Shown: positions 5,581 to 46,749, counted from the stretch's first letter. The stretch is 64,000 bases of DNA from Rhodospirillales bacterium (GCA_038143065.1 JAYQLI010000012.1:1-64000), one strand, 5' to 3'. The notes: generated by a model not told the origin, from the sequence alone. Numbers and translations are program-made.

Positions 5581-6603
5581 TCAGGCTTTTTGAAGCACGC
5601 GCTGGCCTAACACTTCGGCGATTTGAACGGCATTCAGTGCCGCGCCTTTGCGCAAATTGTCAGACACGCACCATAGATTCAACCCATTTTCTAAGGTGCT
5701 ATCCTGCCGGATGCGGCTGACAAATGTTGCGAAATCACCAACGCATTCCACGGGTGAGACATAACCCCCATCCTCGCGCTTATCGATTACCATCAAGCCA
5801 GGCGCTTCGCGCAGGATGTCGCGGGCCTCATCCTCATCCAAGAACTCTTCAAATTCGATATTAATCGCTTCGGAATGCCCCACAAAAACCGGAACCCGCA
5901 CGCATGTTGCGGTGACTTTTATTTTCGGATCAATAATCTTTTTGGTTTCGGCAACCATTTTCCATTCTTCCTTGGTGGTGCCATCTTCCATAAACACATC
6001 AATATGAGGAATGACATTAAAGGCGATTTGTTTTGGATAGACTTTTGGTGCCACTTCCTGGCCCGGCACATACATGCCTTTGGTTTGGTTCCAAAGCTCG
6101 TCAATCGCTTCCTTACCGCTGCCCGACACTGATTGGTAGGTGCTGACCACCACGCGCTTGATGGTGGCACGATCATGAAGCGGTTTGAGCGCAACCACCA
6201 TCTGCGCGGTTGAACAATTGGGGTTGGCGATTATATTTTTTTTCGAATATCCAAAAATCGCATCCGCATTTACCTCCGGTACGATCAACGGAACATCTGG
6301 GTCATAGCGATATAAAGAGCTGTTATCGATCACAACGCAGCCGGCCTTGGCTGCGCGCGGCGCGTGCAGTTTTGTGGCTTCAGAGCCCACGGCAAAAAGT
6401 GCGATATCCCATCCTGAAAAGTCAAATTGTTCCAAATCTTTGGTTGATAAAATCTGATCGCCAAAACTCAATTCGGTTCCCAAGGAGCGTCTGCTTGCAA
6501 GCGCAACGATTTTATCAATTGGAAAATGCCGTTCTGCCAAGATATTCAGAATTTCTCGGCCAACATTGCCCGTGGCGCCAACAACAGCAACTTTATAACC
6601 CAT
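5581..6603 (-). CDS. asd: Aspartate-semialdehyde dehydrogenase
   Basis: GATGNVG, NPNCST, TCVRVPVFVGHSE and DNLRKGAALNAVQIAE motifs. Confidence 0.97.
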   Translation of the reverse strand: MGYKVAVVGATGNVGREILNILAERHFPIDKIVALASRRSLGTELSFGDQILSTKDLEQFDFSGWDIALFAVGSEATKLHAPRAAKAGCVVIDNSSLYRYDPDVPLIVPEVNADAIFGYSKKNIIANPNCSTAQMVVALKPLHDRATIKRVVVSTYQSVSGSGKEAIDELWNQTKGMYVPGQEVAPKVYPKQIAFNVIPHIDVFMEDGTTKEEWKMVAETKKIIDPKIKVTATCVRVPVFVGHSEAINIEFEEFLDEDEARDILREAPGLMVIDKREDGGYVSPVECVGDFATFVSRIRQDSTLENGLNLWCVSDNLRKGAALNAVQIAEVLGQRVLQKA

Positions 6604-16807: not shown

Positions 16808-18004
16808 TGTCTTAGCCCTAGAACTGTGCCAGTATATTTTGGCAAAGGGAGTAAGGAAACATGGTTCGAAAGCGTTATTCTGATGAAGATGTGTTGAAGT
16901 TATTACGCGAGATTGATGTTCATTTGCACGATGGTTTGGACGTTTTGAGTGCGTGTCGCAAAGCTGGGATTTCTGATAAGAGTTATTATTACTGGCGTAA
17001 GAAGTTTGGAGGCCTTTCTCGTTCACAGGTTTCTGAGATGAAATTGCTCAAGAAAGAAAACGAGCGCTTGAAGAAGATCGTCGCTGACTTGCAGTTAGAC
17101 AAGGTGATCCTGAAGGAGAGCCTTGATCATCTAAAGCCGCGGGCCTGACGCGGGCTCAGCTTCGTCAGGCTGTTATTCATACGCGTCAAAAGCTGGATAT
17201 TTCTGAGCGGCGTGCTTGCGCTGTTCTGGATGTAGCCCGCTCAAGTCTGCGCTATCAAGCCCAACCCACAGATGACACCAAACTTCGCTTGGCGATGATC
17301 CGGCTGGCCAAGCAATATGGGTGGTATGGCTATAGGAAAGTCACAGCCCTGCTGCGCATGGAAGGCTGGCGTGTTAACCACAAGAGGATCGAGCGCTTAT
17401 GGAACGAAGAAGGTTTACAGCTGCCGCGCCGGCACAAGAAGCGCAAACGGCTTTATCACAAAGACAGTTCCATCATCAGGCTGCGGCCCACACATCCGAA
17501 CCATATTTGGGCGATCGACTTTGTGCACGATAAGCTTAGCAATGGGCGCAGCTATAAAATGTTCACGGTTCTAGATGAATACACCCGTGAAGCGCTCTGC
17601 GTGGCAGTGCGGCCCAAAATGAATGCGATGATGTTTTGGAGACATTGCACCCGCTGTTGATTAAACATGGTAAGCCAGAGTTTATTCGCTCTGACAACGG
17701 ACCCGAGTTTATTGCCACGCATCTACAGGACTGGCTGAAAAGGATTGGGATCAAACCAATGCAAATCTATCCAGGCAGCCCTTGGGAAAATGGATACAAC
17801 GAACGCTTTAACGGCACCTTGCGAAAAGAAGTGCTCAACGCGGAATGGTTCCACACCACACAAACAAGCTCAGGTCGCAATCAATGCTTGGCTCAGGCAA
17901 TACAACCAGATCAGACCTCACCATGCATTAAACATGCGCCCACCCGTCCCAGAAACCCTATTAGAGAAACCAAAAATCAATGGACGAATATAGGGGGCTG
18001 GACA
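16808..18004 (+). mobile_element. IS3-family insertion sequence, copy 2 (orfA 16861-17148, orfB ~17145-17993)
   Basis: TG...CA termini with IRs TGTCTTAGCCCTA / TAGGGGGCTGGACA. HTH orfA; DDE orfB with WAIDF, IRSDNGPEF and PWENGYNERFN. Confidence 0.95.
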
Positions 18005-18281
18005 GTATGGGGTCAATAGGTATTAAAACCTTCTCAGGTACACCCATGTTTCATTGACAAAAGCGGGGCCCCAGAGTATTATTAAAGTTGTTTTTAGGTG
18101 CGCTCTTATACGCCTATAAGTGTAAGATAAAAGATTTACTTCGGCCTTCCTGCGTTGCCAGCTTTCGTCTCAAACCCAATCCCCCAAAAATATAAAAATA
18201 AGAAATAAGTTTGACCTGAACTGAGGTGCTTCGTATCGTTTGGGTTAGTGAAATCGATTTAATTTAAAGAGGGATATTGAA

Positions 18282-19510: not shown

Positions 19511-19799
19511 GCCAAACAGTAAAAGCTGACCCCCTCTTATCCCTGACATCGAAACCTTTGAGGAGCGAGTGGCCATTATGGTGCACGCGGGCGGCATTCC
19601 AACCGACCAAGCTAAGGACCTTGCAGCGCAAGCCCAAGGTTTCCGCAGTCAGGCTCATTACTGGGCGTGGCTCAGGGTCTATGTCGACAGGAAACGGTTG
19701 GGGTAGGCCCCCGACCAAAAACCAAGCCAGCTTCCCAGAGCGGGGGGCTGGGTATGCTTTTCCTATTTTTTTGCAAAGAGGGGTTGGGGTAGGTGCAGT

Positions 19800-19953
19800 G
19801 TGGCAGGCACTCACAACATCCCTATCTCCATGAAGATGAACTTCAACCTTGAGCAAAATCTTCAACGCGTCTTCGTCCGAATACGGTTTCAGTGCCATCC
19901 TTGAAACCTCCTGTGACCATTAAGTAATGGCATAGTTTTAGTAGGATAAGACA
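19800..19953 (-). mobile_element. Diverged IS3 left-end fragment
   Basis: TGTCTTATCCTACTA terminus; MALKPYSDEDALKILLKVEVHLH resembles orfA at 16861. Confidence 0.8.
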
Positions 19954-20046
19954 GGAGTTCCTTGAGGCGTGTAATAATTACGGAAGCGATGATATCTTGG
20001 GCATTAAGCGCAAATATATAAGTCAAACGTGCAATGTGATCTAAAA

Positions 20047-21743
20047 TTAACTGATCAACTCGAATTTTGTGACATCGACCATGCCGCGATCCGTGATTTT
20101 CAGAGCGGGTATAACGGGTAGAGCAAGGAAAGCAAGTTGCAGAAAAGGCTCATTGAGGCATACGCCGAGAGACATAGCAGCGGCGCGCAGATTTTTCAGC
20201 TCTGTGCGCACTTGCTCAAAGGGCAAAAGGCTCATCAGGCCAGCGACAGGCAAGGCAAGTTCAGCTATTACCCTACCGCCCTGGGCAACTACAAAAACCG
20301 CCTCCGATCTCTGATAGGCGGTTAGCAGCGATAGCAATATCGCCATAATCCATTCCCACACAAACGATGTTATGATGGTCATGACAAACAGTTGAGGCGA
20401 TAGCACCAGCCTGTAGGCCAAAGCCGCGCACAAAACCTGTGGCAATATTGCCGTTTTTACCATGTCTCTCCACTACTGCTATGCGCGCCAGATCGCGGGT
20501 CGGATCTGGATGTTTGTCACCGTCGCGTATCGGAATCGTCTCGTATAGATGCTCGGTGATAATTTGGCCTTCTATGATACCGATTACATCGGTGTCTTCT
20601 CGGTTGGCCGTGGTGCGGAAATCTTGTGCTCGTACCTTTGGGGCCTTCACCGAGTTACGCGCTACAGGTGCTTGGCTGCCCCGTGCGGCAAATGCGGACT
20701 CGCTGACCTGTATGCCGCCTGCCAGCACTATCTCGACTGTACATGCCTGCACATCAGACAGCGCAACGATATCGGCTCGCTTGCCTGGCGAGATCTGACC
20801 GCGATCTTTAAGACCAAAGGCCTCAGCCCCGGAAAGTGATGCTGCGCGATAGGCGGCAAGTGGCGGGGTACCCAGGCGGATCAGCTCGGCCACCATAAAA
20901 TTTAAATGACCTTCCTCGGCGATATCCAACGGATTTCGATCAGCGGTACACAGGCACATGTAAGGCGCTGTGGTTTGGGTGAGTAGCGGTTGTAGAGCAT
21001 GCAGATCATTACTGACTGATCCTTCGCGGATCAGGATGCGCAACCCCTTTTGTAGTTTTTCTCGCGCTTCTTCTAAAGTTGTCGCTTCGTGCTCGGTTCG
21101 TATGCCAGCACTTGCATATGCATTGAGATCGCGTCCGGACAGTAGCGGGCAATGTCCGTCAATATGGCCAAATTCAAAAAGCCTTAGTTTGGCGATGGCG
21201 GCTGGATCGCAATGGATCACTCCGGGGTAGTTCATGAACTCCGCAAGCCCAATGCCAGAAGGGTGGCCCATCAAAGGTACGAGGTCTGTGGCGTCAATTT
21301 GCGCACCTGCAGTTTCCATATAAGTCGATGGCACACAAGAAGATAGCTGCACTCGGATATCCATAAGTGTGTTCAGGCTGGCTTCCTGGAAGTAGCGGAT
21401 GCCATCGGGGCCGATAACATTGGCAATCTCGTGAGGATCGCAAATTGCGGTGGTAACACCAAGAGGTGTAACGCAGCGGTCAAACTCAAACGGGGTAACA
21501 AGAGACGACCTCAATATGCAGATGCGTGTCGATAAAACCTGGCACCAACGTTTGGCCATCCACATCTATTTGGACCTTGCTCTTATAGTCTGCTCCAATA
21601 CCGACAATGGTGTCTTCACAGATTGCTACATCACCTTCAATCATTGTGTCGGTTACCAGATCCCAGACAATACCACCCCGCAAAACTAAGTCAGCAGGCT
21701 CATCCCCGCGTCCCTGCGCAATTCGAGTCTCCAAATCACTCAT
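20047..21743 (-). CDS. ade: Adenine deaminase family amidohydrolase (two frameshifts)
   Basis: [42 protein letters not shown] and LPVAGLMS motifs. Confidence 0.9.
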
Positions 21744-21747
21744 TTAC

Positions 21748-23317
21748 TTACTCCGCTGTTGCCATACCAAGCCTTCGCAAAACCCGTCGTTCCACAATCA
21801 CCACCGCCTGATAAAATAAAACGGATAATAGGACCGATACGGCAGCAACAGTCCAGATCATGCCATAGTCAAGAAAACCGCGCGACTGATTCAAAAGATT
21901 GCCAAGCCCTTTCCCAGTTGCCAGCCATTCAGCGATCATTACGCCCAGCAGAGCACGTGGGACGGTAAGACGTGTGGCTGCAAAAAGATACGGTAGCGAG
22001 GCAGGTATTGTTACCATCCGCATCTCAGTCCAGCGACTGGCTCCATAGGCTCGCGGCAAGTCTTCGGCGCTGCGCGGAACCAATGCCAGACCCTGTGCAA
22101 GTGTGACAAAGGCCGGAAAAAAAGTAACCGATATTGTCACCCAAAGTGTCAGAGATGTCCCGCGTCCTAGGATCAGAACCAGCAGCGGCGTTAGTGCCAC
22201 CAACGGCATAGTTTGCGTGACAAGCGCTAAGGGCATGAAAGCCTCAACAGCACGGGGCATCAACCGCGACGAGATAGCTAAAATGAAGGCAAAGCCCAAC
22301 CCTGCAGCCATACCCACCAGAGTAATTGGCAGGGTTTCTAACAAAGCGGCCAAAAGGCGAACCTGGGCGCTTTTGGCTGTGGTTGCAAAACAGATAGTCC
22401 ACAACACCCCATGGTGTTTTGGAGATCAGCCCAGGAACTCCGGTAAGTTTTATAAAGCCCCACCAGACAAAAAACGGAAGCGCAACAGTGATTAGTGTCA
22501 AAATTGTCCGTTTGACTGGGGTACTATTCATAGGCGTGGCGTTTGGCACCGCGGTGTTCAAAGTTACCGCGCGTGTCGCGCCAATGGTTCGGCGAGCGAG
22601 TAGAGCAAAGAAACCATAGGACAAACCTGCGATCAGAGTCGCGACAAGGCCTATGCCCCATAGTCTGTCTGGTTCTCCTCGCCCCAGTGAACCCAACAGA
22701 TAAGCCCCTAATCCCCAGCGCCCACCTCCGCCAAACTCAGCCAAGATTGCGCCAAGCACCGCGTTAGGAGCGGCGACTCGAAGGCCAGCAAGTATGGACG
22801 GCAACGCACCTCTAAACTGTACCCGCCGTAGTATATCCCAGCGATTACCGCCATAGGCACGGATTACATCTACAGCTCGGCTATCAGTCTGACTTAGTCC
22901 AATCACAGTGGCGGTCATAGTTACGAAGTAGACACCAAGTGCGGCAAGTGCGATACGCGGCGCCATGCCAGACAGTGTCAGAGCGAGAATGGGCGCGATA
23001 GCGATTGGTGGCAATGCAAAAGCAGCGATGTTCACACCGCGAAACAGGCGTAGCGCCGTTGGAGATAAGGCAAAAATCACCCCAGCGCCGATGCCAAGTA
23101 CATTGCCTATTAAAAATCCAATAGCTGACGAATAGAGGGTCGCCCAGATATGACGTGGATAGTCACCCCAATCGAACCAGAGCCGTATCAGGATTTCTGA
23201 AAGACCGGGCAAAGCGCCGTCCGCCACGAGGTCAAGCCGCCCTGCTATTTCCCAGATCATCAATAAGATCGCTGCTGCGCTCGTCCCACGCGATCGTCCA
23301 GACGCCTCAGCCGTCAT
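21748..23317 (-). CDS. ABC permease, SsuC/ThiX type, two fused membrane domains (one frameshift)
   Basis: ORFs 22244-23401 and 21748-22407 each carry a RAYG(G/A)..W...R....P..LP EAA-like loop. Confidence 0.85.
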
Positions 23318-24078
23318 GCAGCACCTCTGTAATGTGGTCGCATACCTTGTGGAACTCTGGGTCAGAAAATAACGTGGCCACCCGAGGTCGGCTGAATTCA
23401 ATGTCGATCACGTCCACAATTTGACCTGGATTACCATGCATAACCACCACTCGGTCCGCCAAAAACACTGCTTCATCTATGCCGTGTGTGACCAGCAGCG
23501 CTGTTGAACCGATTTCTGTCCAGATGCGCTGCAATTCAAGGTTCATCTGCCGCCGCAGGATCTGATCTAACGCGCCAAAGGTTCATCCATAAACAGAATT
23601 CTCGGATGAGTGACTAAGGCTCGTGCTATTGCGACCGCTGGCGCATGCCGCCAGACAACTCTCCAGGCAAAGCATCTTCGAAGCCACTCAGACCAACAAG
23701 ATCGATCATGTTTTGGATGTGTTCGGACTCTTTAACGATCGAACGTCTTAGAACCTCGAGAGGAACTTCAACATTACTCCGTACACTGCGCCATGGCAGC
23801 AACGCCGCGTCCTGAAACGCAACACCTGTTTCGCCAGCGTTGGCGGCTTGCATTGGCGCTTTTCCTGCTATCCAAACATCACCTTCATCCGCCAACTCTA
23901 GGCCTAAAGCAACCCGCATAACCGTTGATTTGCCGCAGCCTGATGGGCCAACGATCGCGGTAAAGGATCCCGTTGGGCAGGACAGGGTTACGTTGCGTAA
24001 AGCTTCGACAACCTTGCCCCGACCAGAAAAGGTCTTGCAGACCCCGGAAAGGGAAATCCCGTCCGGGGCCAACATCAA
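23307..24078 (-). CDS. ABC ATP-binding protein, SsuB/ThiZ type (frameshifted)
   Basis: GPSGCGKST, LSGGMRQR and VTHGIDEAVFLADRV motifs. Confidence 0.92.
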
Positions 24079-25046
24079 ATCTCCTCAAGCAGGGTGGTGT
24101 CGAACATGTCGCGCGTTCCCTTGATGCCAACCTTGGAAAGCGCGCGGAGATTGGCTTCTATACCTTCTTCAGTCATCGACATATATCCTGCAGGGCTGTC
24201 CATGAGCGGCTTCTGGGCATTATTAAAGAAGATCTCGTTGTCAATTGAGCGCCCTGTGCCTGCGAACCAGGTATTAGCCCATTTTGGCGGCCACAGATTA
24301 GCATCTTTAAAATTTTCGTCCCAGCCCTTGCGTGAGGCGCGCAGCCACGATACCAATTCGGCACGCTTTGTAGAAAGTGTCTCCTCGGTCACTACAACGG
24401 TATCATTATAGATCGTAAACCCAAAATCATATAGAAGGAATGATGTCGCTTCGACGCCCTGCTGACTGATCGTGTATGGAACGTTAGTCGTGAAATCGAG
24501 GCTGGCGTCAATCTCGCCCTTGATGAGTGGCGTAGGATCATAGGCGTAAGGCACTATATTAACATTTGCCGGATCAATCCCGTTCAATGCCAGCATTGCA
24601 TTGACTGAGATCACGTTAACTGGTGGTACGGCCAGTGTTTTCCCTATCAGGTCCTTGGGTTCGTTGATAGGGTTAGAGACAAGCGACACGATACCAATCG
24701 GGTTCTTCTGATATTGCGCACCAATAATCTTGAACGGTGCGCCCTGTTCCGCAATTGCCTTGATTGTGGTGTCAGGAGTGGTTAGGGCCAGATCAGCGCG
24801 ACTTGCGATTATAGTGCTTTCTGGGATCACATCGGGACCACCGGACAAATAGGTTAGATCAAGGCCTTCTTCGGCATAGTATCCGTTATCGATGCCAATG
24901 AAATAGCCAGCAAACTCAGCGTCATTGATCCATGCCGCTTGCATTGTGAAAGTTGTGCCGGCCAAGGCCCGTATAGGCATTGAGGCGGCAACTGCGCTGG
25001 CAGCAGCGGTTCCGAGGAAACGGCGTCGGTTTAGTCTGAGGCTCAT
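24075..25046 (-). CDS. NMT1/THI5 (ThiY)-like ABC substrate-binding protein with Tat signal
   Basis: RRRFL twin-arginine signal; W..DAEFAGYFIG...GYYAEEGLD...GGP and PKDLIGK motifs. Confidence 0.88.
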   Translation of the reverse strand: MSLRLNRRRFLGTAAASAVAASMPIRALAGTTFTMQAAWINDAEFAGYFIGIDNGYYAEEGLDLTYLSGGPDVIPESTIIASRADLALTTPDTTIKAIAEQGAPFKIIGAQYQKNPIGIVSLVSNPINEPKDLIGKTLAVPPVNVISVNAMLALNGIDPANVNIVPYAYDPTPLIKGEIDASLDFTTNVPYTISQQGVEATSFLLYDFGFTIYNDTVVVTEETLSTKRAELVSWLRASRKGWDENFKDANLWPPKWANTWFAGTGRSIDNEIFFNNAQKPLMDSPAGYMSMTEEGIEANLRALSKVGIKGTRDMFDTTLLEEI

Positions 25047-25073
25047 GGGTAGGTACTCCTTTTGTTTGGATGA

Positions 25074-25811
25074 TCAGGCGAGGCCTTGCAAGCGCTGAAG
25101 TTCCTGCAAGGGTGGTGTTTCGGTAATCTGTTTTGGTTCGAGTAACGGCCACTTGACTCCGCTTGGCCGTTTAGCCCGTCGCTCGACCACATGCGCTTTT
25201 TTCGGAGTTAAGATGGTGTCAACCAAAATATCAGTTTCGGACGGCTGTAATTGTTCTTCAACAAGTTGAACATCGTGGACCACGGCATGAACAGGCGTAT
25301 GTTCGTCCACCAGACCAATGTCAGTGAACATGCCCCATTCGAGATCAAAGAAGCCGTGGCCTTTTCCAAAGCGGACGCCGTTTACGGATACGGCGGATGC
25401 TCCAGTTACTAGATAGTCGAAGCGCCCTTTGTGTGCGATCTCTTCCAACGTGATCGGCACGCCGAAATGCTCCATCCCATCGAGCCAAGAAGCATATAGT
25501 GCTGCACCATCAGGCACTTTGGCTGGATCAAGGTAGAGAAAGCCGCGGTAAATCCCATAAGTTGACATGACGAATGGTTTGGAATCTTCAATCATACGAC
25601 GGCGCAAATCTGCAAGACAATTATCAGGTGTGATGAATGCGAAGCGGCTGTTTTGATAGGCTTCGCTCTCGATAACGCGGTCGGTTGCGTCTTCCGAGCC
25701 GTCGAAGTCGGGAATGACTTCAGCAAAATTCATGTGAAACCTGGTGTCAGGCCTCGCTACGTCCTTGAGTTTAGTCCATATCCTTTGGCGGATGATTTTG
25801 GAGGTAGACAT
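25074..25811 (-). CDS. 5-formyltetrahydrofolate cyclo-ligase paralog (COG0212/MTHFSD-like)
   Basis: K.IIRQRIW start, FITPD, ASAVS..GVRFGKGHGFFDLEWG, VHD.Q and DILVD.ILTP motifs. Confidence 0.85.
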   Translation of the reverse strand: MSTSKIIRQRIWTKLKDVARPDTRFHMNFAEVIPDFDGSEDATDRVIESEAYQNSRFAFITPDNCLADLRRRMIEDSKPFVMSTYGIYRGFLYLDPAKVPDGAALYASWLDGMEHFGVPITLEEIAHKGRFDYLVTGASAVSVNGVRFGKGHGFFDLEWGMFTDIGLVDEHTPVHAVVHDVQLVEEQLQPSETDILVDTILTPKKAHVVERRAKRPSGVKWPLLEPKQITETPPLQELQRLQGLA

Positions 25812-25834
25812 TTTTATCTTTTCAATTGTTTCTA

Positions 25835-25863
25835 TGTTTCATAAGAATGAAACAACCGTTCCA
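25835..25863. promoter_or_regulatory. Putative RpiR operator in the divergent promoter
   Basis: Perfect IR TGTTTCAT-AAGA-ATGAAACA, overlapping TGAAAC-N4-GTTCCA. Confidence 0.55.
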
Positions 25864-25886
25864 AACGTCAAGAGAATTCTTACCCC

Positions 25887-26735
25887 ATGGCTTCAAGATT
25901 GGTCCTCAGAATTCAGGAGCGTTCAGCGCGCCTGACGTCGAGTGAAAAGAAAATTGCACAGGTTTTACTTCAAAATCAAAACCTTGTTGAAACGCATACC
26001 GCGACGGAACTTGCTGCCAAAGCCGGAGTTTCTAAGGCAACAACTGCCCGTTTTTTCCGCAGTTTGGGATATGTTGACTTTGAAGAGGTCAGGTTACAGG
26101 CCCGCGAAGAGCGAAATCGTCGCGAACCCTATACAGCTTTCGAATCGACTTCGCAGACAGTAACCCTCGGGCGGGCCATTTCCGATCATCTTGATTTGGA
26201 ACTAGATAATCTAACACGTACATTTGAAGAGTTACGCGCAGACCTCATGCCAAGTATCGCCCAAATGCTGGAAGAGGCACCTCGCATTTGGTTTGTCGGC
26301 TTTGGCGATGAACAGGGGTTGGGTCGGTTGGGTCAATCACTATTTAACCGGCTGCGGCACGGCGTGCATGAGTTGCGGGGGCAGGGGCAAACTTGGGCAA
26401 ATGAGCTGTCTATGATGGGCCCGCGAGATGTCTTGATCCTACTTACCTTTGAGCCGCGTCCAAAGGTGGTGCGTGCATTGCTGGCCCATGCACGCACCAC
26501 GCGAATGAGGGTAATTACGCTTACTGATCATGCCTATGCTCCACAGGCAGAACGGTTCTCTGAAGTTGTCCTTCCTTGCCATGTGGCGAGCTATGGTATG
26601 CTTCCAACGCACGCCACTATGCTTTCGATCTTGCGGCTAATAGCGGTGACTTATCTAGGACGTAACCCGGATGCTGTTACCCAGCGCATCTCAACGTTGG
26701 CGGCTATAGATGAAGAGTTTGACCTGTTTGAATAG
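25887..26735 (+). CDS. RpiR/MurR family regulator (HTH + SIS)
   Basis: LTSSEKKIA...TATELAAKAGVSKATTARFFRSLGY motif. Confidence 0.93.
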   Translation: MASRLVLRIQERSARLTSSEKKIAQVLLQNQNLVETHTATELAAKAGVSKATTARFFRSLGYVDFEEVRLQAREERNRREPYTAFESTSQTVTLGRAISDHLDLELDNLTRTFEELRADLMPSIAQMLEEAPRIWFVGFGDEQGLGRLGQSLFNRLRHGVHELRGQGQTWANELSMMGPRDVLILLTFEPRPKVVRALLAHARTTRMRVITLTDHAYAPQAERFSEVVLPCHVASYGMLPTHATMLSILRLIAVTYLGRNPDAVTQRISTLAAIDEEFDLFE

Positions 26736-27221
26736 CTGAAGGTTTCAAAAGAACTATTGACACTCTTGAATTAAATTACAGCCCTCAAGAGAAAGATCAA
26801 AAACCATAAGATAAAGAAGTCATTATTTAGCTTGGTGTGGACCACTTTTTAAATCTCTGACGAGATGGGGAGTGTTTTGTAATCCAAAGACTCTGCAAAG
26901 TCGCGCTGCACATCTCAAGCAAATTTAATCTGACAAAACCTTCGATATGGTAAAATTGACTGTCCGTTTTCACAAAGGTCTAGCATCATATGCGTATAAG
27001 CGGTTCGCCAAAAGGCGCTTGAAAGAAGAGCGCGACTGTCAGCGCTGAATATATAAAGCCAGCAACCCATATTTTGGCGATGCCTTGATCTGTTCTGCCT
27101 GCCCATGGTCCGATCAGGGGCAAAACTTGCGTGGATGGATCAGCCAACCGAACGATTAAGAGGCGCTCATCATATCCTACATGTCGTAAAATCATAATGT
27201 CTGCTTTCACCCTCGTACTCA

Positions 27222-28364
27222 CTATTGCTCACCAAACGTAATTTCAAGCATCGCTTTCTGAATAGCGTCGGGCATGCCCGGGTCGTATTGAGTATGGGAA
27301 GCTCCCTTTACAATCTGACATGTTTTCTTCAGCGCAAAACTTTCACTTTCAGTTCGCTCGTCCGTATCTGCTTCGCTCTCTAATAGCTTTTCGATAACTT
27401 CGTAGGCAAAAGCGGGGGGGCAGAGCATGTCAAATTCGCCGGTGATCAATCTTATTTTTTTCCGTAAAGAGCGAACAAGTTCCTCGCGACTTTCGATAAC
27501 ACGCTCACCATCTCCGTTGATTTTCGCAACTACTGTCTCAAGAAAGTTTTTCGAGTTAATTGAAGAGGCATGCGAATTCAAACTCTTGTAAAAGCTCAAA
27601 CCCAACTTAACGATATCCTCATCTGAAGTCAGTAGCTCGATACTGGTTGCGGGGGGATTAGCATTGTTGGCACCTACAGTTGCGCCCAGAGCATCCCACT
27701 TCAACCAGCTTACCGCTGCTTTTTGACTTTTCTCTGGGCTATCGCCCGTCATCAATTCCCAATATTTGTTTACGAGTTCTAACCCGGGATTTTCAGATTT
27801 TTTCAATCTTTCCAAATCAGCTCGTGTCTTGTACCCAACATGCCCGATGAAATGGCGCCACTGCGCAGGATAATACTTTCCCTTGCCGTTTTTACCGTCC
27901 CCATAGTCGTGGTCCAAATCCTGCTCCCGAATCAGCCATAATCCGCGCAATACCAAACCGGAAACAGTACTCCCAAAATATTTGGCGGCATACGCCAACC
28001 CTAGAGTAGCGCCATTCGAACCGCCATAAACAACAGCCCATTTGTCGATACCAAAATGCTGCCTTAACACTTCACAATCGTCGATGTTTGCGTCGATACC
28101 GGTGGAGGTATCGGTCCCAGTAACCTCTTCAATTTTAGACCGTCCCCACCCGCGTTGATGAAAGTAGATTATTCGAAACTTAGAGCGTATCTCTTCGCTC
28201 AAAATATCCAACCTGTGCTCTTCATTTTCCGCTGGTCCCCAGCCGCCGTGCAGGACCAGCATCGGTGCGCCATCTGGGTTACCGAGTTCGACAGTATACA
28301 GCGAGAGACCGGTTTTTACTTCGACCATTGATGTTTGTGAGTTGTGAGCAATCTGAGATACCAT
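27222..28364 (-). CDS. Proline iminopeptidase-like alpha/beta hydrolase
   Basis: GNPDGAPMLVLHGGWG, QRGWGRS, GGSNGATLGLAYA, LVLRG, D(MLCP) and ASH motifs. Confidence 0.82.
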   Translation of the reverse strand: MVSQIAHNSQTSMVEVKTGLSLYTVELGNPDGAPMLVLHGGWGPAENEEHRLDILSEEIRSKFRIIYFHQRGWGRSKIEEVTGTDTSTGIDANIDDCEVLRQHFGIDKWAVVYGGSNGATLGLAYAAKYFGSTVSGLVLRGLWLIREQDLDHDYGDGKNGKGKYYPAQWRHFIGHVGYKTRADLERLKKSENPGLELVNKYWELMTGDSPEKSQKAAVSWLKWDALGATVGANNANPPATSIELLTSDEDIVKLGLSFYKSLNSHASSINSKNFLETVVAKINGDGERVIESREELVRSLRKKIRLITGEFDMLCPPAFAYEVIEKLLESEADTDERTESESFALKKTCQIVKGASHTQYDPGMPDAIQKAMLEITFGEQ

Positions 28365-28559
28365 CCTAGATTTCCTGAGCAATTTTCGACAAGGCACTTC
28401 AGCTTTACTACGAAGCTTGCATGTATGTTATCATATAATCTTGGCGACAGATTACCTATGCATCCCCATTCTCACTTGGCGGAATGAAAGCTAAAGAATG
28501 ATATACTCCTCCCACCGCAGCGGCTTGTTGCATAAAGCAATCACTCCACTATACATCGG

Positions 28560-28828: not shown

Positions 28829-30172
28829 ATGAGTGATGATATGCCGCTTAAACTCCGACGCTATGTATTTCGCCGTGCCAATGGCAGCTTTCGATATAAA
28901 CGCAACGTTCCTTTGCATCTTAGAGCCCTGATTGGGAAAGCAACGCTCTATCGCCAGCTTGGGGATAGCTACAAAGAAGCCATGCAAAACCTGCCCTTAG
29001 TACATGCTCGAATCGAAGCACTGCTAGAAGGTGAGAAAGAGAAATCTGCACGAGATCGCAGTATTGAGATTATTAGGGGTGCGCTGGGCGATGAAGTGGC
29101 GGACATGGTGCTGGCCAATGCCGTACCTGAGTATTCTGAGATTGAGGATGCGCTTAATGAGTTGGGTAAGGCTCTACATAAGCAAAAGCTACCTTCAGAG
29201 ATTGTAGAACAAGTTTATTCAGGCAAGTTAAGGCAAGAGGTCATAACGCTTGAGACGGTACTTAAAGACTACGTTGCCTATAAGTCAGATACACCCAAAG
29301 CAGAAAAGGAAATTACGCAGCGGGTTGAAAGGCTGCGTAAAGACATGCAGCACATCTACGGTAAGCAAAAGCTTAAGTATGTCTCGCTTAGTGATATCAG
29401 CAGGCAAGATGCCAATGATCTAAGGGATCACCTACTAAGCCGTGTGTCGGCCAATAGCGCTGTTAGAATGCTGGGGGTTGTGAGAACGGCTATTAACCAT
29501 GCAATCGTGGAGCATAGTCTCAACATCCCCAATGTTTTTACAAACCTTCGCATTAAAGGTGCGGGTGCCAGTAAGCTAGATAGGCTACCGCTGAGTGACA
29601 CTCAGATCGTTCATTTAGAGACAGCTTACTCGAATGATACAACAGCTTGGGCGCTGTTTGTTTGTCTGAGAGATACGGGTTGCAGAGTATCAGAGATAGC
29701 GGGCCTGAGGGTCAAAGACTGTGACACTGACAAAGAATGTTTAATCATATCCCCTACCCCCTGGAGAACACTAAAGACCAATAACTCGCACCGCTCTGTG
29801 CCACTCTCGCCAGAGGCTATCAAAGCCCTTGAGGAAGTATTCCAAGGCAAAGATCCTGAGGCACCTCTCTTTCCCCGATACGCAAAGGAGCGTGGAGGGG
29901 ATAACTGCTCAGCCATGCTCATGAAGCGCCTCAGAACCATAATCACAGACAAGAAGCTTACGATGCATTCACTACGCCACCGCATGAAGGACAAGCTGAG
30001 GAATACAGGCTGCCCGGAGGCCATCTCCATGGCCATACTCGGGCATGGCTCTAACACAGTCGCTGCGAACTATGGTTCAGGCTATGCCCTAGACGTCATG
30101 GGAGCATATGGAAACGGATTTGGTAAATCATTAAAATCAAAAAGTTCCGAGGGTTTGCGAATTACGGATTGA
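28829..30172 (+). CDS. Tyrosine integrase with DUF6538-like N-terminus
   Basis: FRYKRNVP..LR N-terminus; TGCRVSEI, LKT, HSLRH and ILGH...Y catalytic residues. Confidence 0.93.
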   Translation: MSDDMPLKLRRYVFRRANGSFRYKRNVPLHLRALIGKATLYRQLGDSYKEAMQNLPLVHARIEALLEGEKEKSARDRSIEIIRGALGDEVADMVLANAVPEYSEIEDALNELGKALHKQKLPSEIVEQVYSGKLRQEVITLETVLKDYVAYKSDTPKAEKEITQRVERLRKDMQHIYGKQKLKYVSLSDISRQDANDLRDHLLSRVSANSAVRMLGVVRTAINHAIVEHSLNIPNVFTNLRIKGAGASKLDRLPLSDTQIVHLETAYSNDTTAWALFVCLRDTGCRVSEIAGLRVKDCDTDKECLIISPTPWRTLKTNNSHRSVPLSPEAIKALEEVFQGKDPEAPLFPRYAKERGGDNCSAMLMKRLRTIITDKKLTMHSLRHRMKDKLRNTGCPEAISMAILGHGSNTVAANYGSGYALDVMGAYGNGFGKSLKSKSSEGLRITD

Positions 30173-34703: not shown

Positions 34704-34838
34704 GAGCACTTGCATGAAGCAGGCGTTTTGTTGCAAACAGAAAATTGGTAAGTTGGGCTCTAAACAGCCATTTGCTGCAATTTGAAAGAATGACCGCTTT
34801 AGCCCAGAGAAAAATCTGAGCCGCTAGGGCCATTAAGT

Positions 34839-36879
34839 TTAAAACGTTTGGCAAAGACGTCTAGAGTCCAGGTATACTAGCATGGATATTTCGGCTCGCC
34901 ACCGCATCCCCAACCCTAAATAGGTTATGACCTCCATAATTAGATATGCTCGGTTGTGCCTCACCTGCTATCAACGCCGGAATATCAACTATTCCATGGG
35001 TTTGCCGCGTTGGCCACCAGCTCAGTAGTAAAGCTCGTCATTCGGCAATGTGCCGTGTTCGACCACAATATAATCTGCCTTTAATTTATAGGGATGGTCG
35101 CCGTAATCAGAGTTAAATTCAGCTAGTACTCCGTTACCTTCGGCTGATACTGTTCAACCTGAAATCAGGTGTCACCTCAACCTGATGGTCATGAAACGCT
35201 TTAATATACATCGGGAAGTTTGATGCCCCCATTTCATGAACCGCATGGCGGTCGGGCGTTACCAGACGCACTTTAAACCCGCGCTTTGCGAGCTCAACTA
35301 CTGTTGATGCAGCTTGATGCTGTCCGTGGTCATCATAAACCAAAACCATCTCTTCACCCGAAGCTATCTTGAGCGCCTCCCCTGACAGCACATCCCATGT
35401 TGAGTGCGCCAGTTCACCACCCTTAATATGCTCAATATCAGGCACACCACCTGTTGCTACCACCACAATATCAGGTTTGAGGGATTCGATCATCTCGCGA
35501 TCTGCAAATTGTTGCCAATGGATATCAACCCCCAGCCTCATTACCTCACTGCTCAGCCAATCAACAATGCCGATCGTGGTCTTTACGTACCTGACTTTTT
35601 GCAGCAAGGCGAACTTGTCCCCCTAATTCAGAAGACGCTTCGATCAACGTCGTCGTGCCCTCGCAAGGCTCGAAACACGGGCCGCTTCTAACCCTGCAGG
35701 CCCGCCACCGACAACCACAACCTTTTTTGCTGTGCCGCCAGATGGTGGAGTGATATGTGGAATACTTCGTTCTCGAGTTGTCGCAACATTATGGATGCAC
35801 AACATCTCACCTTCATTATAGATGCGGTCAATACAATATCCTGCCCCCACACAAGGTCGGATTTCTTCGGCGCGGCCCTCTTTAAGTTTATTGACCAAAT
35901 GCGGATCAGCGATATGCGCCCGCGTCATGCCCACCAAATCAACCAGCTTTTCTTGGATGGCATATCGCGCGGTTGCAAGGTCAGGAGATGCGCGCGCATG
36001 GATGGTTGGCGTTTTCAGCTCAGCCTTAAACGTCCCCGCCAATTGCAGGAACGGAGCCAGCTCTTTAAACATTGCAGGTACCGGATAATTTGCCAGCATA
36101 TATTCCGTATCTGACCTCCCTACATTTAGATTGAAATAATCAATCGTACCGTCTGCTTCAATAATCTTCAGGGCTTCCTAACGCTTCTTCTTTTTGCAAG
36201 CTTCTGTTAGCTTACTGTCCATTTCAACCCGCGCGCCAATCACAAAATCAGTGCCACTATTCCTCTTTAACCTTGTCATAAAGTTCACGCAGAAAACGCA
36301 TCCGCCCTATTAAATCGCCGCCATATTCATCATCACGCAGGTTTGTATCAGGCGAAAGAAACTGCCAGGCAAATGCCCATTTTGCAAAATCTTCAACCAT
36401 CAAGCCCTGCGTCACGGCGTGCGGCGGCAACATAATCACCAATAACGCGTTTGATGTCAGCATGGTCCATCACTTTCGGAAACCCTCGATGGGCAGGTTC
36501 ACGCACGCGAAAGGTGCAATCACTGGCAGCCAATCGCCGTCATTCCACGTAGTTCGGCGTCCCAAATGCGAAATTTGGCACACAATACGGCAATCTTCTT
36601 TATGGATGCGCTCAGCAAATTCTCTAAAATAAGGGATCATCCGATCAGACGACACATCTAGCTGACCGAAGACAGAAGGTGAGTCAGGGCTCACGCAAGA
36701 TGACCCAACCTATCCATCGTCATCCCGATCCCGCCTTTGGCTTTTTCCAAATGGTAACGTTGATATCGCTCTTTTGGCATACCATCCTCTGCTAATGCAG
36801 GCGCGTGGTACGTGCTGACAATACGATTTTTAAGAGTCATCGCCCCCAATTGAAACGGCAATAAAAGCGGGTCTGACAT
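34839..36879 (-). CDS. NADH:flavin oxidoreductase, StcD/HpbA (N-methylproline demethylase)-like (frameshifted)
   Basis: MSDPLL.P...LKNRI, HLGRRTTWNDGDWLP, RDDEYGG, TRAHIADP, CVGAGYCIDR and VVGGGPAGLEAARV motifs. Confidence 0.85.
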
Positions 36880-36984
36880 GGCACACTCTCAATTGAAAAT
36901 TTGAGTTCAAAGTATTCGCAAATATGAATTTAGACGGTGCACGAATGCGCCCTTTAAGGCTAAACCACCTTAAATTTTGTCAAT

Positions 36985-37008
36985 TGTCTAGCCCCTATAC
37001 TCGCCCAG
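36985..37008 (-). mobile_element. Isolated IS3 right terminal repeat
   Basis: TGTCTAGCCCCTATACTCGCCC matches 10954-10977. Confidence 0.7.
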
Positions 37009-37427
37009 TCATTTTAAGTCGGTTGTACTAAGTAAGAATTACTGTTTTTTTCTAGGCATAGCTACACACAGGTTTGTGGAGCCAGGAAAGTCCAGTGAAA
37101 AGAATTTTTTATGACAGCAGAGCTCTGTCGAAAGTCATAATTTTGGTGCGTCTTGTAGCTCTACTTTAAAAACCAAAGAACGAAAAAGAACTTTACTCTT
37201 TAGCTCTCGGCAGGCAGAGCGTGTTTTAGCGCTCATGGACCCAAAGGTCAGCGTTGCGGACAAAGCCGACTTTTAAGCTCAAAGCCTTAATGTTGATTTT
37301 AGGCCTATTGATAATTTCAGGATTGCAAAATGCTAAATGGCCTTTCCATTACCGATATTCTTATTAAGGTTGAGGTTGCGTGCCGGTATCATCCAGCCAA
37401 GCCACTTGTGCGTTTAAGGAAACTGCT

Positions 37428-41197: not shown

Positions 41198-41935
41198 CCT
41201 TTGTCAGTGATTGCATCAAGGGCGATTTGGAACATTCGGGCTTCGCCCGCGGCCAAAGGGTCAGACCTAATTTTTCCTGGCTGATCCCATCAACGGTGCC
41301 CAGACACAACGTTGCCGACGCAACACCAAGATCGCCAGCCGCAGCAATGAGCGCCGAGGTCTCCATATCCGTGGCAAGGACACCCTTGTCATGCAGCGTT
41401 TGACAATATTGTAGACACGCGGCCCTGGCTGGCGTCTCAATCGCAAACATATCACGGCAGAAAGCATCAAAAAAGTCGCAAAAAGCCCGGTATGAGCAAT
41501 GACACCCTGTCCTGACAGCTGCGGCATTCAAGCGTGGACCAGCTCTTCATTCGCTGTCAGTTTGCCGCCATCGCGGTTATACGCCCCACCGGTACCCTCA
41601 TAGCTCGGCGCATCTTGGCTGATCAGAAATTCGCCAGGGCGTGCTGGAGGGAAATGCATCGCCGTGCCTATTCGAACGAACCGTTTTAGTCCGAGATAGG
41701 CCAGTTCATGCAGGACAATCGTTGCAATAGGCGATCCCATTCCAAAGGCGGCAATGCTGACGCGGACGCCATTGTAGTGGCCCGTGACGGTCTGGAGGCC
41801 GCGTTTGATGGGCAGGAAGACAGGATCGAACAATCGTGTCGCAATTCGGTCGATACGGTCAGGGTCACCGACAAGGATCGCACATTCTCCGACATCATTT
41901 GGGCTATGCCCCAGATACCAAGCGCGCTTTGTCAT
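41190..41935 (-). CDS. Nucleoside phosphorylase, uridine phosphorylase/PNP-like (frameshifted)
   Basis: LVGDPDRI, FGMGSP, RIGT and ATDMETS motifs. Confidence 0.87.
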
Positions 41936-42743
41936 AAAGCTGGTCCTTTCTCTTTGAGTGAGGAGGAGGTTCGCCGCTACAATCCCCGCCTTTGCCGCCT
42001 CGACGGGCGTCGCGCCAGACATCTGCTGTGATGAAGCCGCCTGCAAAACTATCTCCCGAACCGGTCATATCCCGACACTTGGCAGGTGAAACCGTCAGCA
42101 GGGTTTCGGTGCCGTCAATTGTAACACTGACGCCTTCTGCACCCCGTGTTTCTATCACGATAGCCGAGGTCGCTGTTACCATCCCGCGTTCTGCCCTATT
42201 GCAGAAAATAACATCTGTAGAAGCGCTAAGTGCCGCGCAGATCTCTGGCGTAAAACTTTGCGCATCATCTTTCATGGCCCAATACAGACGGGAATTGGGT
42301 GCACGGGCTGATAGTATATCTTCCGTGACCTGCGGTGGCCCAACAGACACACATAGATGCGAAGCATGACCGATGAGACGCTTTTGTGAGTCTGTCAGAA
42401 CTCTTGACCAGGTGCCCCGGGGTCGTAAAGACATGTACATGCGCCGTCCGGGTCAGGTCAGCATAGCAACTGGGGACCGAGCACCAGATATCTGTGCCAC
42501 CCCTCTGTTAATAGACCATATCTTTGCAATTCCTTCTGAGCCAATCGCCCAACTGATCATCTCCGACCCATCAACGGCGCAGCTTTCAAACCTGCCTGCA
42601 AGGTGGCCCCCAGCTATATATGATGGACACCCGCCCGCACGCGGCCATGTTGTCCTCACGGCCCGCGCGGTTCGCTCAGCACCACTGGTCCCTCACAGAT
42701 ACATCACATGATCCAGGCTGGCATATCCGGTGACGACCAACAT
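41932..42743 (-). CDS. PfkB family carbohydrate kinase (frameshifted)
   Basis: RAGGCPSY, FCNRAE, TRGAEG and DMTGSGDSFAGG motifs. Confidence 0.85.
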
Positions 42744-43295
42744 CAAGTAAACATCTCCTTGGCCTCAGCCAAGGTGACTACCCGCCCGAGATATCGCGAG
42801 ATATCCTCAAGGCTGGCGTCACCTAGATTTGCGCGGTTTGTATTGACTGCATCACCCACAACAGCCACGTCAAACCCATGCCCAAAGGCGTCCTGTGCAG
42901 TGGCGCGCACACAGACATTGGTTTTAACGCCACAGATAACGACGCTATCTACACCCTGTTCGCGCAAGAACAGGGACAATTCTGTTGCAAAAAATGCGCT
43001 ATAGCGCCTCTTCTTGAGTGTAATTTCTCGTTTGCGGTCCTGAGGGCCAAAACCCTTAAAGAACGCGGCGTCGAAGCCACCTTCGATCCCATGAAATGGC
43101 AGTTTCGGTTGTTCGAAATCGGTGAACCCGTCACGGTGGACATCGGCGATATGGACTATGATGGCTTCGGTCGCGGCGACAACGCCAATCAGATCCAAAC
43201 AAGGCTGAACGACGTCAGATGCCGCCGGATAGTAATTTCCGCCATCCGGGTGCAGAAAGAATTCTGCATATCGATCACCAAAGTGCTATGCTCAT
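42743..43295 (-). CDS. Isochorismatase-family cysteine hydrolase (RutB/nicotinamidase-like)
   Basis: LVIDMQNSF, KRRYSAFF and GVKTNVCVRATAQDA supply the D-K-C triad. Confidence 0.87.
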
Positions 43296-44177
43296 GCTTT
43301 TGCCTTTCTCTGTGCCTGGATGCTGGCTACAACCAAAGCGATGAGTACCATCACGTAAGGCAGCATGCCAATCAGCTTGGGCGGCAAACCTTCAAGCTGA
43401 AGTCTGATTTGCGCAGCTTCGAGCGCCCCAAATAGCAGGCAAGCAAAAGCTGTCGTGACGGGATCGGTCGCGGCCGAAATAAAATGCCGCCAAAGCGATA
43501 AAGCCAGCCGTAAGCCCTTCATTAAATAGCCCAAGCGATACCAGCGCCAGATGCGCACCGGCAAGGCCACAAAAGAACCCGGCGCAGGCCGTGGTGAAAT
43601 CCTGAATGGTCAAATGCTGCAAAACCAGATCGCGCCATCTCTGAGGCGTTTCCGGTTGCGCGAATCCAAAGCCCGATACGTGTGCTGGCCAGCACAAATG
43701 GCAATAAACCAACTGTCATCCAAGCGAAAAGCGTCAATGGATCAAGCGCCGCAAGACTTGGTCCGACCAGTGGCACGACCTCAAGTCCAGCGGGCAGAAG
43801 CTTTGGCAAAAGCGCTACATCAGGAAGCCGCAGAGTGCCTGATGAGCGATACACCCAACTGAGAATGAAACCGAGTACACCGGCCACCAAAATGTTCAGA
43901 CCCAAACCAGCAACAATCATATTAGCTCCGGCGCGCGTAATACTGAGAGAGAACAGCCAACCAATTGCGGCGCTAGCCAAAGCTGCAGCCAAACAGGCGA
44001 TAATCCAACTGCCCGTGGCTGAGGATACAATCACAGCCACAAAAGCCCCGGCCAACATCTTGGCCTCAAGCCCGATGTTCACGATGCCGGCGCGTTGTTG
44101 ATCCAGCCCGCCCATTGCCGCCAAAGGATTGGCGTTGTTAACATGATTGCGGATGCGATTAGATGCTCAAACTGCAT
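43292..44177 (-). CDS. Nucleoside ABC permease 2 (frameshifted)
   Basis: RAGIVNIGLE, GFIALAA and LPYV motifs. Confidence 0.85.
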
Positions 44178-45205
44178 GGGTCTGCCTCCGTCTGTTCTTC
44201 ATAAGACGCGCGGCTTCGATGACGGCAAAGATCATCACTGTCCCTTGAATGATATTTACCAGTCTAATGGAATATTTGAAAAGAAGAGTTGGAACCGTTG
44301 TCCCGGCAGAGGCTAGAGCTCCGAATAGCACTGCGCCAAACAAAATACCGATCGGGTGGTTCCGTGCTAGCAAGGCCACGGCCATGCCTGTAAAACCATA
44401 TCCGGGTGAAAACCCGTCTGAGAAGCGATGCATCTGCCCCAACCCATGTGATGCACCGCCAAAGCCGGCAATCACGCCGGACAACACCATGACCAAAATG
44501 ATGACCGCAGGAACCGAGATCCCGACCGCACGCGCGAAGCGGGGGTTTTGACCCACCACCGCTCCCTCGAAACCTGAGGGTGTGTTGCGGCACCAGGTCC
44601 AGTAGGCAATGATGCAAAGTAGCCCGATGATGAAGCCTGCGTGTAATGTTGAGGGTGGCATCAAACGCTCAAGTTCAGCAGTTTCATGAATGAGCGGCGT
44701 GACGTTGTTTTCCGGATTGGGGTGACAGAAGGGGACCATTGACCAAGTACCCACTGATACCGGCTGCAATGAAGTTCAGCATCAAGGTTGAGACAACTCA
44801 TCCGCCTCATACTTTGCCAAAAGCACGCCGGGCAGCCATAGCCACAATCCGCCTGTTACTGCCGCAGCGATAAAAGCCAACGGGATAATTCCACTCCAAT
44901 AGACGCAGGGAGCGTGAATGCGACAAAAAAATTGCAGCCAAACCACCTAAGACAAACGCGCCATCCACACCGACGTTGAATACGCCTGAACGAAAGCAAA
45001 TGGCTGTGGCGACAGCGGTGAACAGCAGTGGCGTAGACGCAGAAAGTGTGGCCGCAAATCGCCGGACATTTCCGAATGCTTCTGTTGCCATCAGAGTAAG
45101 GATTTCAACTGGGTTTTCGCCAATTGTCAATAGAACAATGGCGGCAATGGCGAAAGCGAACAGCAGGCAATACAATGCCCAGACTGCGTTCAGTGCAGTA
45201 CCCAT
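44167..45205 (-). CDS. Nucleoside ABC permease 1 (frameshifted)
   Basis: FRSGVFNVG, G.NPRFA..G and GYGFTGMAVALLARNHP motifs. Confidence 0.85.
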
Positions 45206-46740: not shown

Positions 46741-46749
46741 AACCGCCTA

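Follow-up and report, generated by a model that had tools for sequence, protein, structure and literature searches.

The folate 5-formyltetrahydrofolate (5-formyl-THF) belongs to the 5-(N-formylamino)pyrimidines, and both EC 6.3.3.1 and EC 6.3.3.2 designate formamide cyclo-ligases. Paralogs of 5-formyl-THF cyclo-ligase (5-FCL or MTHFS) belonging to the COG0212/MTHFSD type occur in bacteria, archaea, plants and animals and are presented, in the passages that deal with them, as thiamin-associated proteins of unknown function (PMC4120688, PMC5041015, PMC5874261); the corresponding statements in citing papers up to 2018 still give the function as unknown (PMC5041015, PMC5874261). As families for uptake of pyrimidine precursors, the section concerned of a marine vitamin B1 study names the thiY ATP-binding cassette (ABC) transporter, ykoF/Yko, the sodium:solute symporter thiV and cytX (PMC10881298). 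Here, a COG0212-type gene is described that is clustered with a ThiY-like importer and an adenine deaminase gene at positions 20,047 to 26,735 of a 64,000-nucleotide (nt) stretch from an assembly filed as Rhodospirillales bacterium (GCA_038143065.1, JAYQLI010000012.1:1-64000). This whole stretch is referred to as the window, its contig as C12 and the assembly as G000. The locus is read, with slightly more confidence than doubt, as a self-contained, repressor-controlled uptake-and-conversion module for a nucleobase-like aminopyrimidine in a Rhodobacterales genome. It represents a variant of an association already known for this orphan family, unremarkable among roseobacter loci, defective in this assembly and useful as a test bed.

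Organization, regulation and conservation of the cluster

Five genes are read on the minus strand, from 25811 down to 20047, in the order COG0212-type enzyme, binding protein, ATPase, fused permease and adenine deaminase, neighbouring genes overlapping or lying no more than 27 nt apart. An intact regulator gene of 282 amino acids (aa) is divergent from the operon (25887-26735, plus strand). Its product carries an N-terminal HTH_6 domain (PF01418, 53 bits) and a C-terminal SIS domain (PF01380, 35.4 bits), both of which characterize the RpiR/MurR family in Pfam, and is 66-87% identical to that of the divergent gene in orthologous loci. An earlier note on this DNA, made from the sequence alone, had described a tight operon under a divergent RpiR gene with a palindromic operator, and all three elements were recovered.

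The RpiR and enzyme genes are separated by 75 nt. Following an inverted-repeat search and comparison with a conserved motif set, the promoter/operator region was placed at 25828-25871 (minus strand). On that strand, a −35-like TTGACG (25871-25866) is followed by four GAAAC-type half-sites: TGGAAC (25863-25858), 4 nt, GTTTCA (25853-25848), 6 nt, TGAAAC (25841-25836), 2 nt, and AGAAAC (25833-25828; GAAAC cores 3 nt apart). The palindrome of the earlier note, TGTTTCAT/ATGAAACA at 25835-25842/25847-25854, is real and corresponds to the middle pair of the four. With the spacing constrained, the four-half-site pattern matched 77 of 78 orthologous intergenic regions. When additional targets of the regulator were sought in G000 and five carrier genomes, the composite operator turned up once per genome in all six, always at the cluster's own site, and the regulon is therefore local. 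RpiR probably acts as a repressor by promoter occlusion. A generic promoter and terminator scan of 19600-26900 gave no excess over shuffled sequence. A lone perfect palindrome of the half-site type, TGAAACAGCTGTTTCA, was observed at 393153-393168 of contig C35, the chromosome of another organism in G000 (see below); for a genome as large as this, about 0.5 such sites are expected by chance according to our own estimate.

The first gene of the operon (25074-25811, minus strand) is intact and encodes a 245-aa protein of the type designated A below, 93% identical to its Thalassococcus lentus ortholog. It scored 43.5 bits on PF01812 (5-FTHF_cyc-lig; cut-off 27) but only 19.7 bits on TIGR02727 (MTHFS_bact/YgfA; cut-off 84.9), the model of canonical 5-FCL; cluster copies from three other genomes (G031, G034 and G035) reached 20-24 bits on the latter. 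A separate canonical 5-FCL gene, at 109-141 bits on TIGR02727, was found in each of five cluster-bearing genomes. Searched against solved structures in the PDB, the enzyme sequence gave no match at E <= 1, while the family profile reached 5-FCL entries at E 4e-6 to 3e-2. An AlphaFold (AF2) model was obtained with a predicted local distance difference test (pLDDT) value of 96.1. The top 11 matches of this model in Foldseek were all 5-FCL/MTHFS entries, led by 1ydm, 2jcb, 1sou and 3hy6 at 12-16% identity, and were followed by eIF2B-like and ribose-1,5-bisphosphate-isomerase-like proteins. Compared with canonical 5-FCL/MTHFS (YgfA, YqgN; PDB 1ydm, 2jcb, 1sou, 3hy3), the enzyme thus has the same fold (Foldseek E 7e-8 to 2e-5; template modelling score 0.48-0.55 on the query and 0.58-0.72 on the target) and the G-x-G-x-G-[YF]-[YF]-D stretch, but is only 12-16% identical and approximately 50 residues longer. 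In 40 diverse relatives, the stretch G-x-R-x-G-K-G-x-G-[YF]-[FY]-D-x-E is nearly invariant, as are the polar residues H179, Q182, D198 and T202 across free-standing, paired and fused forms. The glycine-rich stretch is presumably the ATP-binding element of 5-FCL.

An exhaustive family search returned 1,191 cluster representatives at E <= 1e-3. Among the long members, nine carry an N-terminal GntR helix-turn-helix (HTH) domain, one of them together with UTRA, one carries a Tpt1 domain and one an RRM, as in eukaryotic MTHFSD. In a maximum-likelihood tree, canonical 5-FCL formed a very long outgroup, far from the window protein, which was placed inside a clade of 31 rows with 100/100 support; its neighbours were the Tpt1-fused (P0098), RRM-fused MTHFSD-like (P0118) and PrpD-linked clades. 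The assignment to COG0212/MTHFSD-type paralogs made in the earlier note is sustained by the low TIGR02727 score, by the separate 5-FCL genes and by this grouping, and its contrary possibility, that the protein groups with canonical YgfA, did not hold. In common with other members of this type, the enzyme exceeds the PF01812 cut-off, has the 5-FCL fold, fails the canonical model, groups with RRM-fused MTHFSD-like proteins and has as its neighbour a transporter whose family is known to take up thiamin pyrimidines. It differs from them in belonging to a distinct bacterial clade with an RpiR operator, pairs of A and B paralogs, GntR fusions and adenine deaminase, and without a thiamin pyrophosphate (TPP) riboswitch.

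Odd architectures were observed elsewhere in the family (P0001, P0002, P0012 and P0025), namely a tandem double 5-FCL-like protein of 517 aa, a protein of 1810 aa matched in seven stretches, a GntR+UTRA+5-FCL-like protein and a GntR+5-FCL-like+ferredoxin-type 4Fe-4S protein. A different COG0212-type paralog, approximately 30% identical, is present in the C35 organism (L167, G000:C35:2368000-2379000) and its genus (L084), where it adjoins PrpD/MmgE-like and PrpF-like genes, a context unrelated to transport. The C35 PrpD-like gene is in two open reading frames (ORFs) of 303 and 136 aa, against 478 aa in a relative.

Downstream of the enzyme gene, an intact gene (24075-25046, minus strand) encodes an NMT1/THI5-like periplasmic substrate-binding protein of 323 aa (PF09084, 140.4 bits). 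Its best solved relative is ThiY with FAMP (N-formyl-4-amino-5-aminomethyl-2-methylpyrimidine) bound (3ix1, E 5e-13), in agreement with the ThiY-type importer named at the outset. The ATPase gene (23310-24078, minus strand) and the gene for a fused permease with two BPD_transp_1 domains (21751-23401, minus strand) were delimited from their reading frames, Pfam matches to the permease and the orthologs in locus L003, where the ATPase has 257 aa and the permease an open frame of 564 codons. Both are of the nitrate/sulfonate/taurine type. The NMT1/THI5-like binding protein is shared with the ThiXYZ importer, but identity to ThiY is low over 210 aligned residues and the permease here is a fused double domain. 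A TPP riboswitch is the usual control of thiXYZ; the window operon has RpiR instead.

The last gene (20047-21743, minus strand; Amidohydro_1 and Adenine_deam_C domains) is an adenine deaminase gene lying in three frames, the pieces of which scored 405.9, 75.1 and 48 bits on TIGR01178 (cut-off 472.5). The intact L003 ortholog, 82-90% identical, reached 581.3 bits on this model and matched Agrobacterium tumefaciens adenine deaminase (Atu4426, PDB 3nqb) from end to end at E 1.7e-82. Intact orthologs from three loci exceed the cut-off (581, 638.6 and 588.1 bits) and keep the CTDD motif. The deaminase of the earlier note is thus present, and its qualification as adenine deaminase-like can be dropped in favour of an equivalog-level assignment taken from the intact ortholog. 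Relative to 3nqb/Atu4426, what sets it apart, besides the three frames and the CTAD reading of this assembly, is its position as last gene of an importer operon, which is lineage-specific.

For the gene-neighbourhood survey, one genome per species was scanned, resulting in 288 relatives of the enzyme, the best 80 of which (72-93% identical) are referred to as close loci. They belong mostly to Roseobacteraceae and Paracoccaceae, with some from Thalassospira, Thiofilum and Hyphomicrobiales. The enzyme gene was accompanied by the binding protein in 78, by the permease in 70 and by the divergent RpiR gene in 72 of the 80, the misses lying at contig ends. For 68 close loci, 700 nt or more of downstream sequence is available; a deaminase gene follows the permease gene in 10 of them, at a distance of 8 nt in L003, and is accessory to the core cluster. 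When other conserved flanking genes were looked for in the 80 close loci, none recurred beyond the core except the deaminase, the flanks varying by genus. Five carriers without a linked deaminase were inspected for one elsewhere in the genome: three had a gene above the TIGR01178 cut-off, one had a gene in pieces and one (G035) had none, a result that does not discriminate. Intact copies of the cluster are available in the cultured strains Thalassococcus lentus KCTC 32084, Meridianimarinicoccus aquatilis SM1902 and Aliirhizobium smilacinae PTYR-5.

With a GntR-fused relative as seed, 34 distant loci were collected in another scan, and an importer adjoins the clade member in 28 of these. NMT1-type ABC clusters account for 20 of the 34 (Rhizobiales, Roseibium, Cohaesibacter, Devosia and others), and in 18 of the 20 a second paralog, B, approximately 47% identical, follows the permease gene, in the place of the deaminase in the window. 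In Chloroflexota (L168-L170, L201) and an Actinomycetota metagenome-assembled genome (MAG; L171), two paralogs occur in tandem, the first being fused to GntR in L168-L170. The tandem is followed in L168, L169 and L201 by a 259-269-aa protein without Pfam match and by a fusion of CbiQ with a double ATPase, of the energy-coupling factor (ECF) type; an ECF-type fusion is also present in L171. Adenine deaminase genes were found in the clusters of L169 (638.6 bits on TIGR01178), L171 (588.1 bits) and L201 (by Pfam and tblastn only), so that with the 10 Rhodobacterales-type loci the enzyme clusters of three phyla contain one. A sodium:solute symporter (SSF) is the neighbour in three Bacillaceae loci (L186, L190, L194) and a Lachnospiraceae MAG (L188). 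The locus of a gammaproteobacterial MAG (L173) contains a gene for an adenine phosphoribosyltransferase-like phosphoribosyltransferase (NF004689, 246 bits, cut-off 175) and an NCS1 base permease gene. Four unrelated kinds of importer, NMT1-ABC, ECF, SSF and NCS1, thus stand beside members of the clade.

State of the operon and origin of the contig

Three of the six genes are not open in the window: the ATPase gene is in three frames with breaks near 23634 and 23579, the permease gene in two with a break near 22386, and the deaminase gene in three with breaks near 21509 and 20293. The regulator, enzyme and binding-protein genes are open. All five frameshifts are homopolymer-length differences, which read on the plus strand CC for CCC (23634), GG for GGG (23579), A4 for A6 (22386), CC for C (21509) and A5 for A4 (20293).

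Twenty public runs from 10 studies, covering seawater, estuary, aquatic, marine and plant metagenomes, contain the stretch 20000-26800, with 57-92% of its sampled words recovered. One run from each of four studies was compared with the window, and every one provides a single contig that spans the whole stretch at approximately 99.7% identity. All four restore the frame at exactly the five sites, by one additional base at 23634 and at 23579, by AA at 22386, and by the loss of one base at 21509 and at 20293, the last two restoring the deaminase frame. The operon is thereby confirmed as a biological entity, the sequence of which is defective or decayed in this assembly.

The Asp of the CTDD motif of adenine deaminase is catalytic or metal-binding. 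The window reads CTADR at this motif, as the earlier note had pointed out, leaving it undecided whether the Ala was real or an error. The Ala codon, GCT at 20944-20942, is indeed present in the window, but all four runs read T for G at 20943, giving GAT, Asp and CTDDR, and all eight deaminase orthologs have Asp at this position; the change is therefore private to the assembly and no peculiarity of the family. A second private change in the deaminase gives Asn where 10 of 10 orthologs have Lys. Each run differs from the window by 16-18 substitutions, at 20 variant positions overall, 15 of which are common to all four. Since 11 of these 15 are synonymous, the window genuinely represents another strain rather than just a noisy copy; two of the four non-synonymous ones strike invariant residues of the deaminase.

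Most likely, the five frameshifts and the Asp-to-Ala change are consensus errors in a low-coverage minority genome within a chimeric assembly. All five sites are short changes in homopolymer length, runs of 1-3 bases included, as is typical of long-read consensus error, and all are repaired in the four independent, near-identical environmental contigs. Real decay, in which five slippage frameshifts and a lost catalytic Asp would have produced a pseudogene cluster in this strain, is the less probable explanation, though one with several observations on its side. The mostly synonymous differences of a distinct strain, the two hits on deaminase residues invariant in eight and 10 orthologs and the absence of indels from the three unbroken genes (2.55 kb) would fit decay as well as error, and the density of indels is uneven among repeats on the small contigs of G000, ranging between 2 gaps in 1.4 kb and 36 in 2.5 kb. 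Against decay stand, besides the four intact contigs and the kind of change, the fragmentation of genes along the whole window and the provenance of C12 from a fragmented minority genome in a chimeric bin.

That provenance was established as follows. G000 consists of one 2.86-Mb contig (C35; long-ORF density 0.83, a normal value) and 51 small contigs (density 0.07-0.91, 46 of them below 0.83). The RpoC protein encoded on C35 is 75-76% identical to those of Azospirillum, Dongiaceae and Magnetospirillaceae and 68-69% to those of Rhodobacteraceae. The window's own Asd gene (5581-6603) shares 80-91% identity with Rhodobacterales Asd but only 60-66% with the genes of the genomes assigned to the same genus as the bin, and C35 carries a second Asd gene (G000:C35:900001-901005) that is 60% identical to the window copy. 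From the two divergent Asd genes and the Rhodobacterales affinity of the window copy it follows that C12 and C35 derive from different organisms, and the apparent relatives of G000 are accordingly not relatives of the window. Horizontal transfer of the cluster into a Rhodospirillales-like host, first inferred from the C35 RpoC and from the presence of only the approximately 30% identical paralog in the same-genus genomes, was ruled out by Asd. We therefore attribute C12 to a Rhodobacterales organism with a low G+C content (48%) that was binned or co-assembled with an unrelated chromosome, and regard its consensus as prone to indels; G000 looks like a chimeric bin or a co-assembly of two alphaproteobacteria.

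Fragmented genes were also found elsewhere in the window, namely DctM in two ORFs (49691-51094) and pieces of BPD_transp_2, Bmp, PfkB, PNP and Aldedh. Of a cluster for uptake and salvage of the nucleoside type at 41528-47439, only fragments are left (a binding protein resembling Bmp/PnrA, two pieces of BPD_transp_2 and one each of PfkB and PNP_UDP_1), and this fragmentation, like that of DctM, probably reflects the same indel problem as in the operon. A 2.5-kb repeat (34753-37266) is shared at 93-97% identity with G000:C2:12935-15450 and C50:4371-6894; a copy on C35 was searched for and not found. Between the copies on small contigs, gaps equal mismatches in number, 36 to 36 in 2.5 kb against C2. 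In a chimeric assembly with indel-rich small contigs, pseudogenes and odd residues on the latter should not be taken as biology. The operon-linked deaminase gene of a Paracoccaceae MAG (L035:12078-13770) is likewise split, into two overlapping ORFs of 636 and 280 codons between stops, possibly by an assembly frameshift.

Candidate function of the module

The comparative data fit the import and processing of an amino-heterocycle that was put forward in the earlier note. In the module that we favour, the RpiR-type protein would bind the four-half-site operator, which overlaps the operon promoter. Once repression is relieved, the ThiY-like ABC importer would take up a nucleobase-like 4-aminopyrimidine compound. 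The cytoplasmic COG0212-type paralog, which has the 5-FCL fold and is distinct from the canonical folate enzyme, would then convert it, probably at the expense of ATP, and in this sub-lineage the product would pass as adenine to the canonical adenine deaminase, yielding hypoxanthine and ammonia. What these loci have in common is an importer, a local repressor and either one or two members of the clade, and the recurrent extra enzymes act on adenine, a combination that fits import of a base-like compound and its conversion in one ATP-dependent step to a standard intermediate of purine salvage. The substrate is probably a common dissolved metabolite, since near-identical sequence was present in runs from 10 marine or estuarine studies.

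Several observations weigh against this module. The deaminase is absent from 58 of the 68 close loci with sufficient downstream sequence, and G035, one of five cluster-bearing genomes, lacks adenine deaminase entirely, so that the product may be other than adenine in some carriers. ThiY, to which the binding protein is closest among solved structures, binds a breakdown product of thiamin and not a purine, and L171 encodes a weakly scoring thiamine-binding domain of the MTH1187/YkoF type (35 bits, cut-off 54.7). The GntR fusions could make the domain a sensor rather than an enzyme, and we know of no precedent for free formamidopyrimidine-adenine (Fapy-adenine) as a nutrient.

As to the chemistry of the conversion step, a 5-FCL-type cyclization of a formamido-aminopyrimidine is proposed by analogy and very tentatively. 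The enzyme would phosphorylate the formamide oxygen, upon which the neighbouring amine would close the ring; Fapy-adenine, for instance, would yield adenine. In this scheme the need for ATP, a flux running towards adenine and the cyclization of the formamide are all inferred. Extended to the whole transporter-linked COG0212 clade, the proposal becomes more speculative still: its members would be formamidopyrimidine cyclo-ligases, a new EC 6.3.3 activity, and would spend ATP on re-closing ring-opened purines, or related formamido-aminopyrimidines, after import. The two paralogs, A and B, might take different bases, and the product might be handed to adenine deaminase or to a phosphoribosyltransferase. 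If true, damaged purines would be salvaged by a pathway overlooked so far, and a protein family present in all domains of life would have its first reaction. A literature search yielded nothing on the organization of the clade, the adenine deaminase partner, the GntR fusions or a formamidopyrimidine cyclo-ligase. The clade offers a clean test bed, with one importer having a soluble, screenable binding protein, one or two enzyme genes and a local repressor with a defined operator, and the bona fide adenine deaminase in three phyla is a pointer to the product.

Salvage of thiamin pyrimidines is a serious alternative, although we consider it improbable. The importer would take up FAMP, 4-amino-5-aminomethyl-2-methylpyrimidine (AmMP) or 4-amino-5-hydroxymethyl-2-methylpyrimidine (HMP) from seawater, the COG0212-type enzyme would perform a salvage or repair step, for example on the formyl group of FAMP, and the deaminase would be an add-on with a side role. 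The FAMP-bound ThiY as best solved relative, the weak Thiamine_BP domain of L171 and the thiamin association cited above for COG0212 paralogs speak for it, as does the agreement of the four importer kinds with the broad families in the uptake list of the marine study. On the other side, the SSF, NCS1 and ECF neighbours match generic family models only, and the enzymes recurring beside the clade are adenine deaminase and the adenine phosphoribosyltransferase-like protein. Scans at Rfam gathering thresholds revealed a TPP riboswitch (RF00059) in none of 26 stretches, comprising the window and 25 related loci, where RpiR or GntR repressors are in control instead, and no thiC, thiD, thiE, thiM, tenA or other gene of thiamin biosynthesis or salvage was detected among the flanking genes of the chosen loci scanned by Pfam. 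A ThiY-like importer adjoins the enzyme gene, yet these two kinds of thiamin marker are missing, and the link to vitamin B1 drawn in the earlier note obtained no independent support. Thiamin breakdown products have reportedly been tested by Pribat et al. in 2011, with negative results.

Plain uptake of adenine or another purine base without conversion, the COG0212-type protein serving as ligand sensor or co-regulator with RpiR, is the least probable of the readings considered: the nine relatives with a GntR HTH domain, one with UTRA too, the sugar-phosphate-binding regulatory proteins of the eIF2B/ribose-1,5-bisphosphate isomerase group as next neighbours of the fold, and the lack of any other encoded enzyme in most close loci would suit it, but the nearly invariant glycine-rich/Asp/Glu stretch and residues H179, Q182, D198 and T202 suggest catalysis, the presence of two paralogs per cluster, as in 18 of the 20 distant loci of NMT1 type, does not sit easily with a sensor role, and RpiR already brings its own SIS sensor domain.

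Mobile elements and other genes near the operon

The operon is flanked in the window by genes of mobile elements. An integrase-like ORF (414-1511) lies by a tRNA gene (1625-1698), and further mobile genes, consisting of rve fragments of IS3 type, spread over two ORFs, and an integrase of phage type, are located at 17289-18019 and 28829-30172. An alpha/beta-hydrolase gene at 27222-28397 has a 97% identical copy on contig C13.

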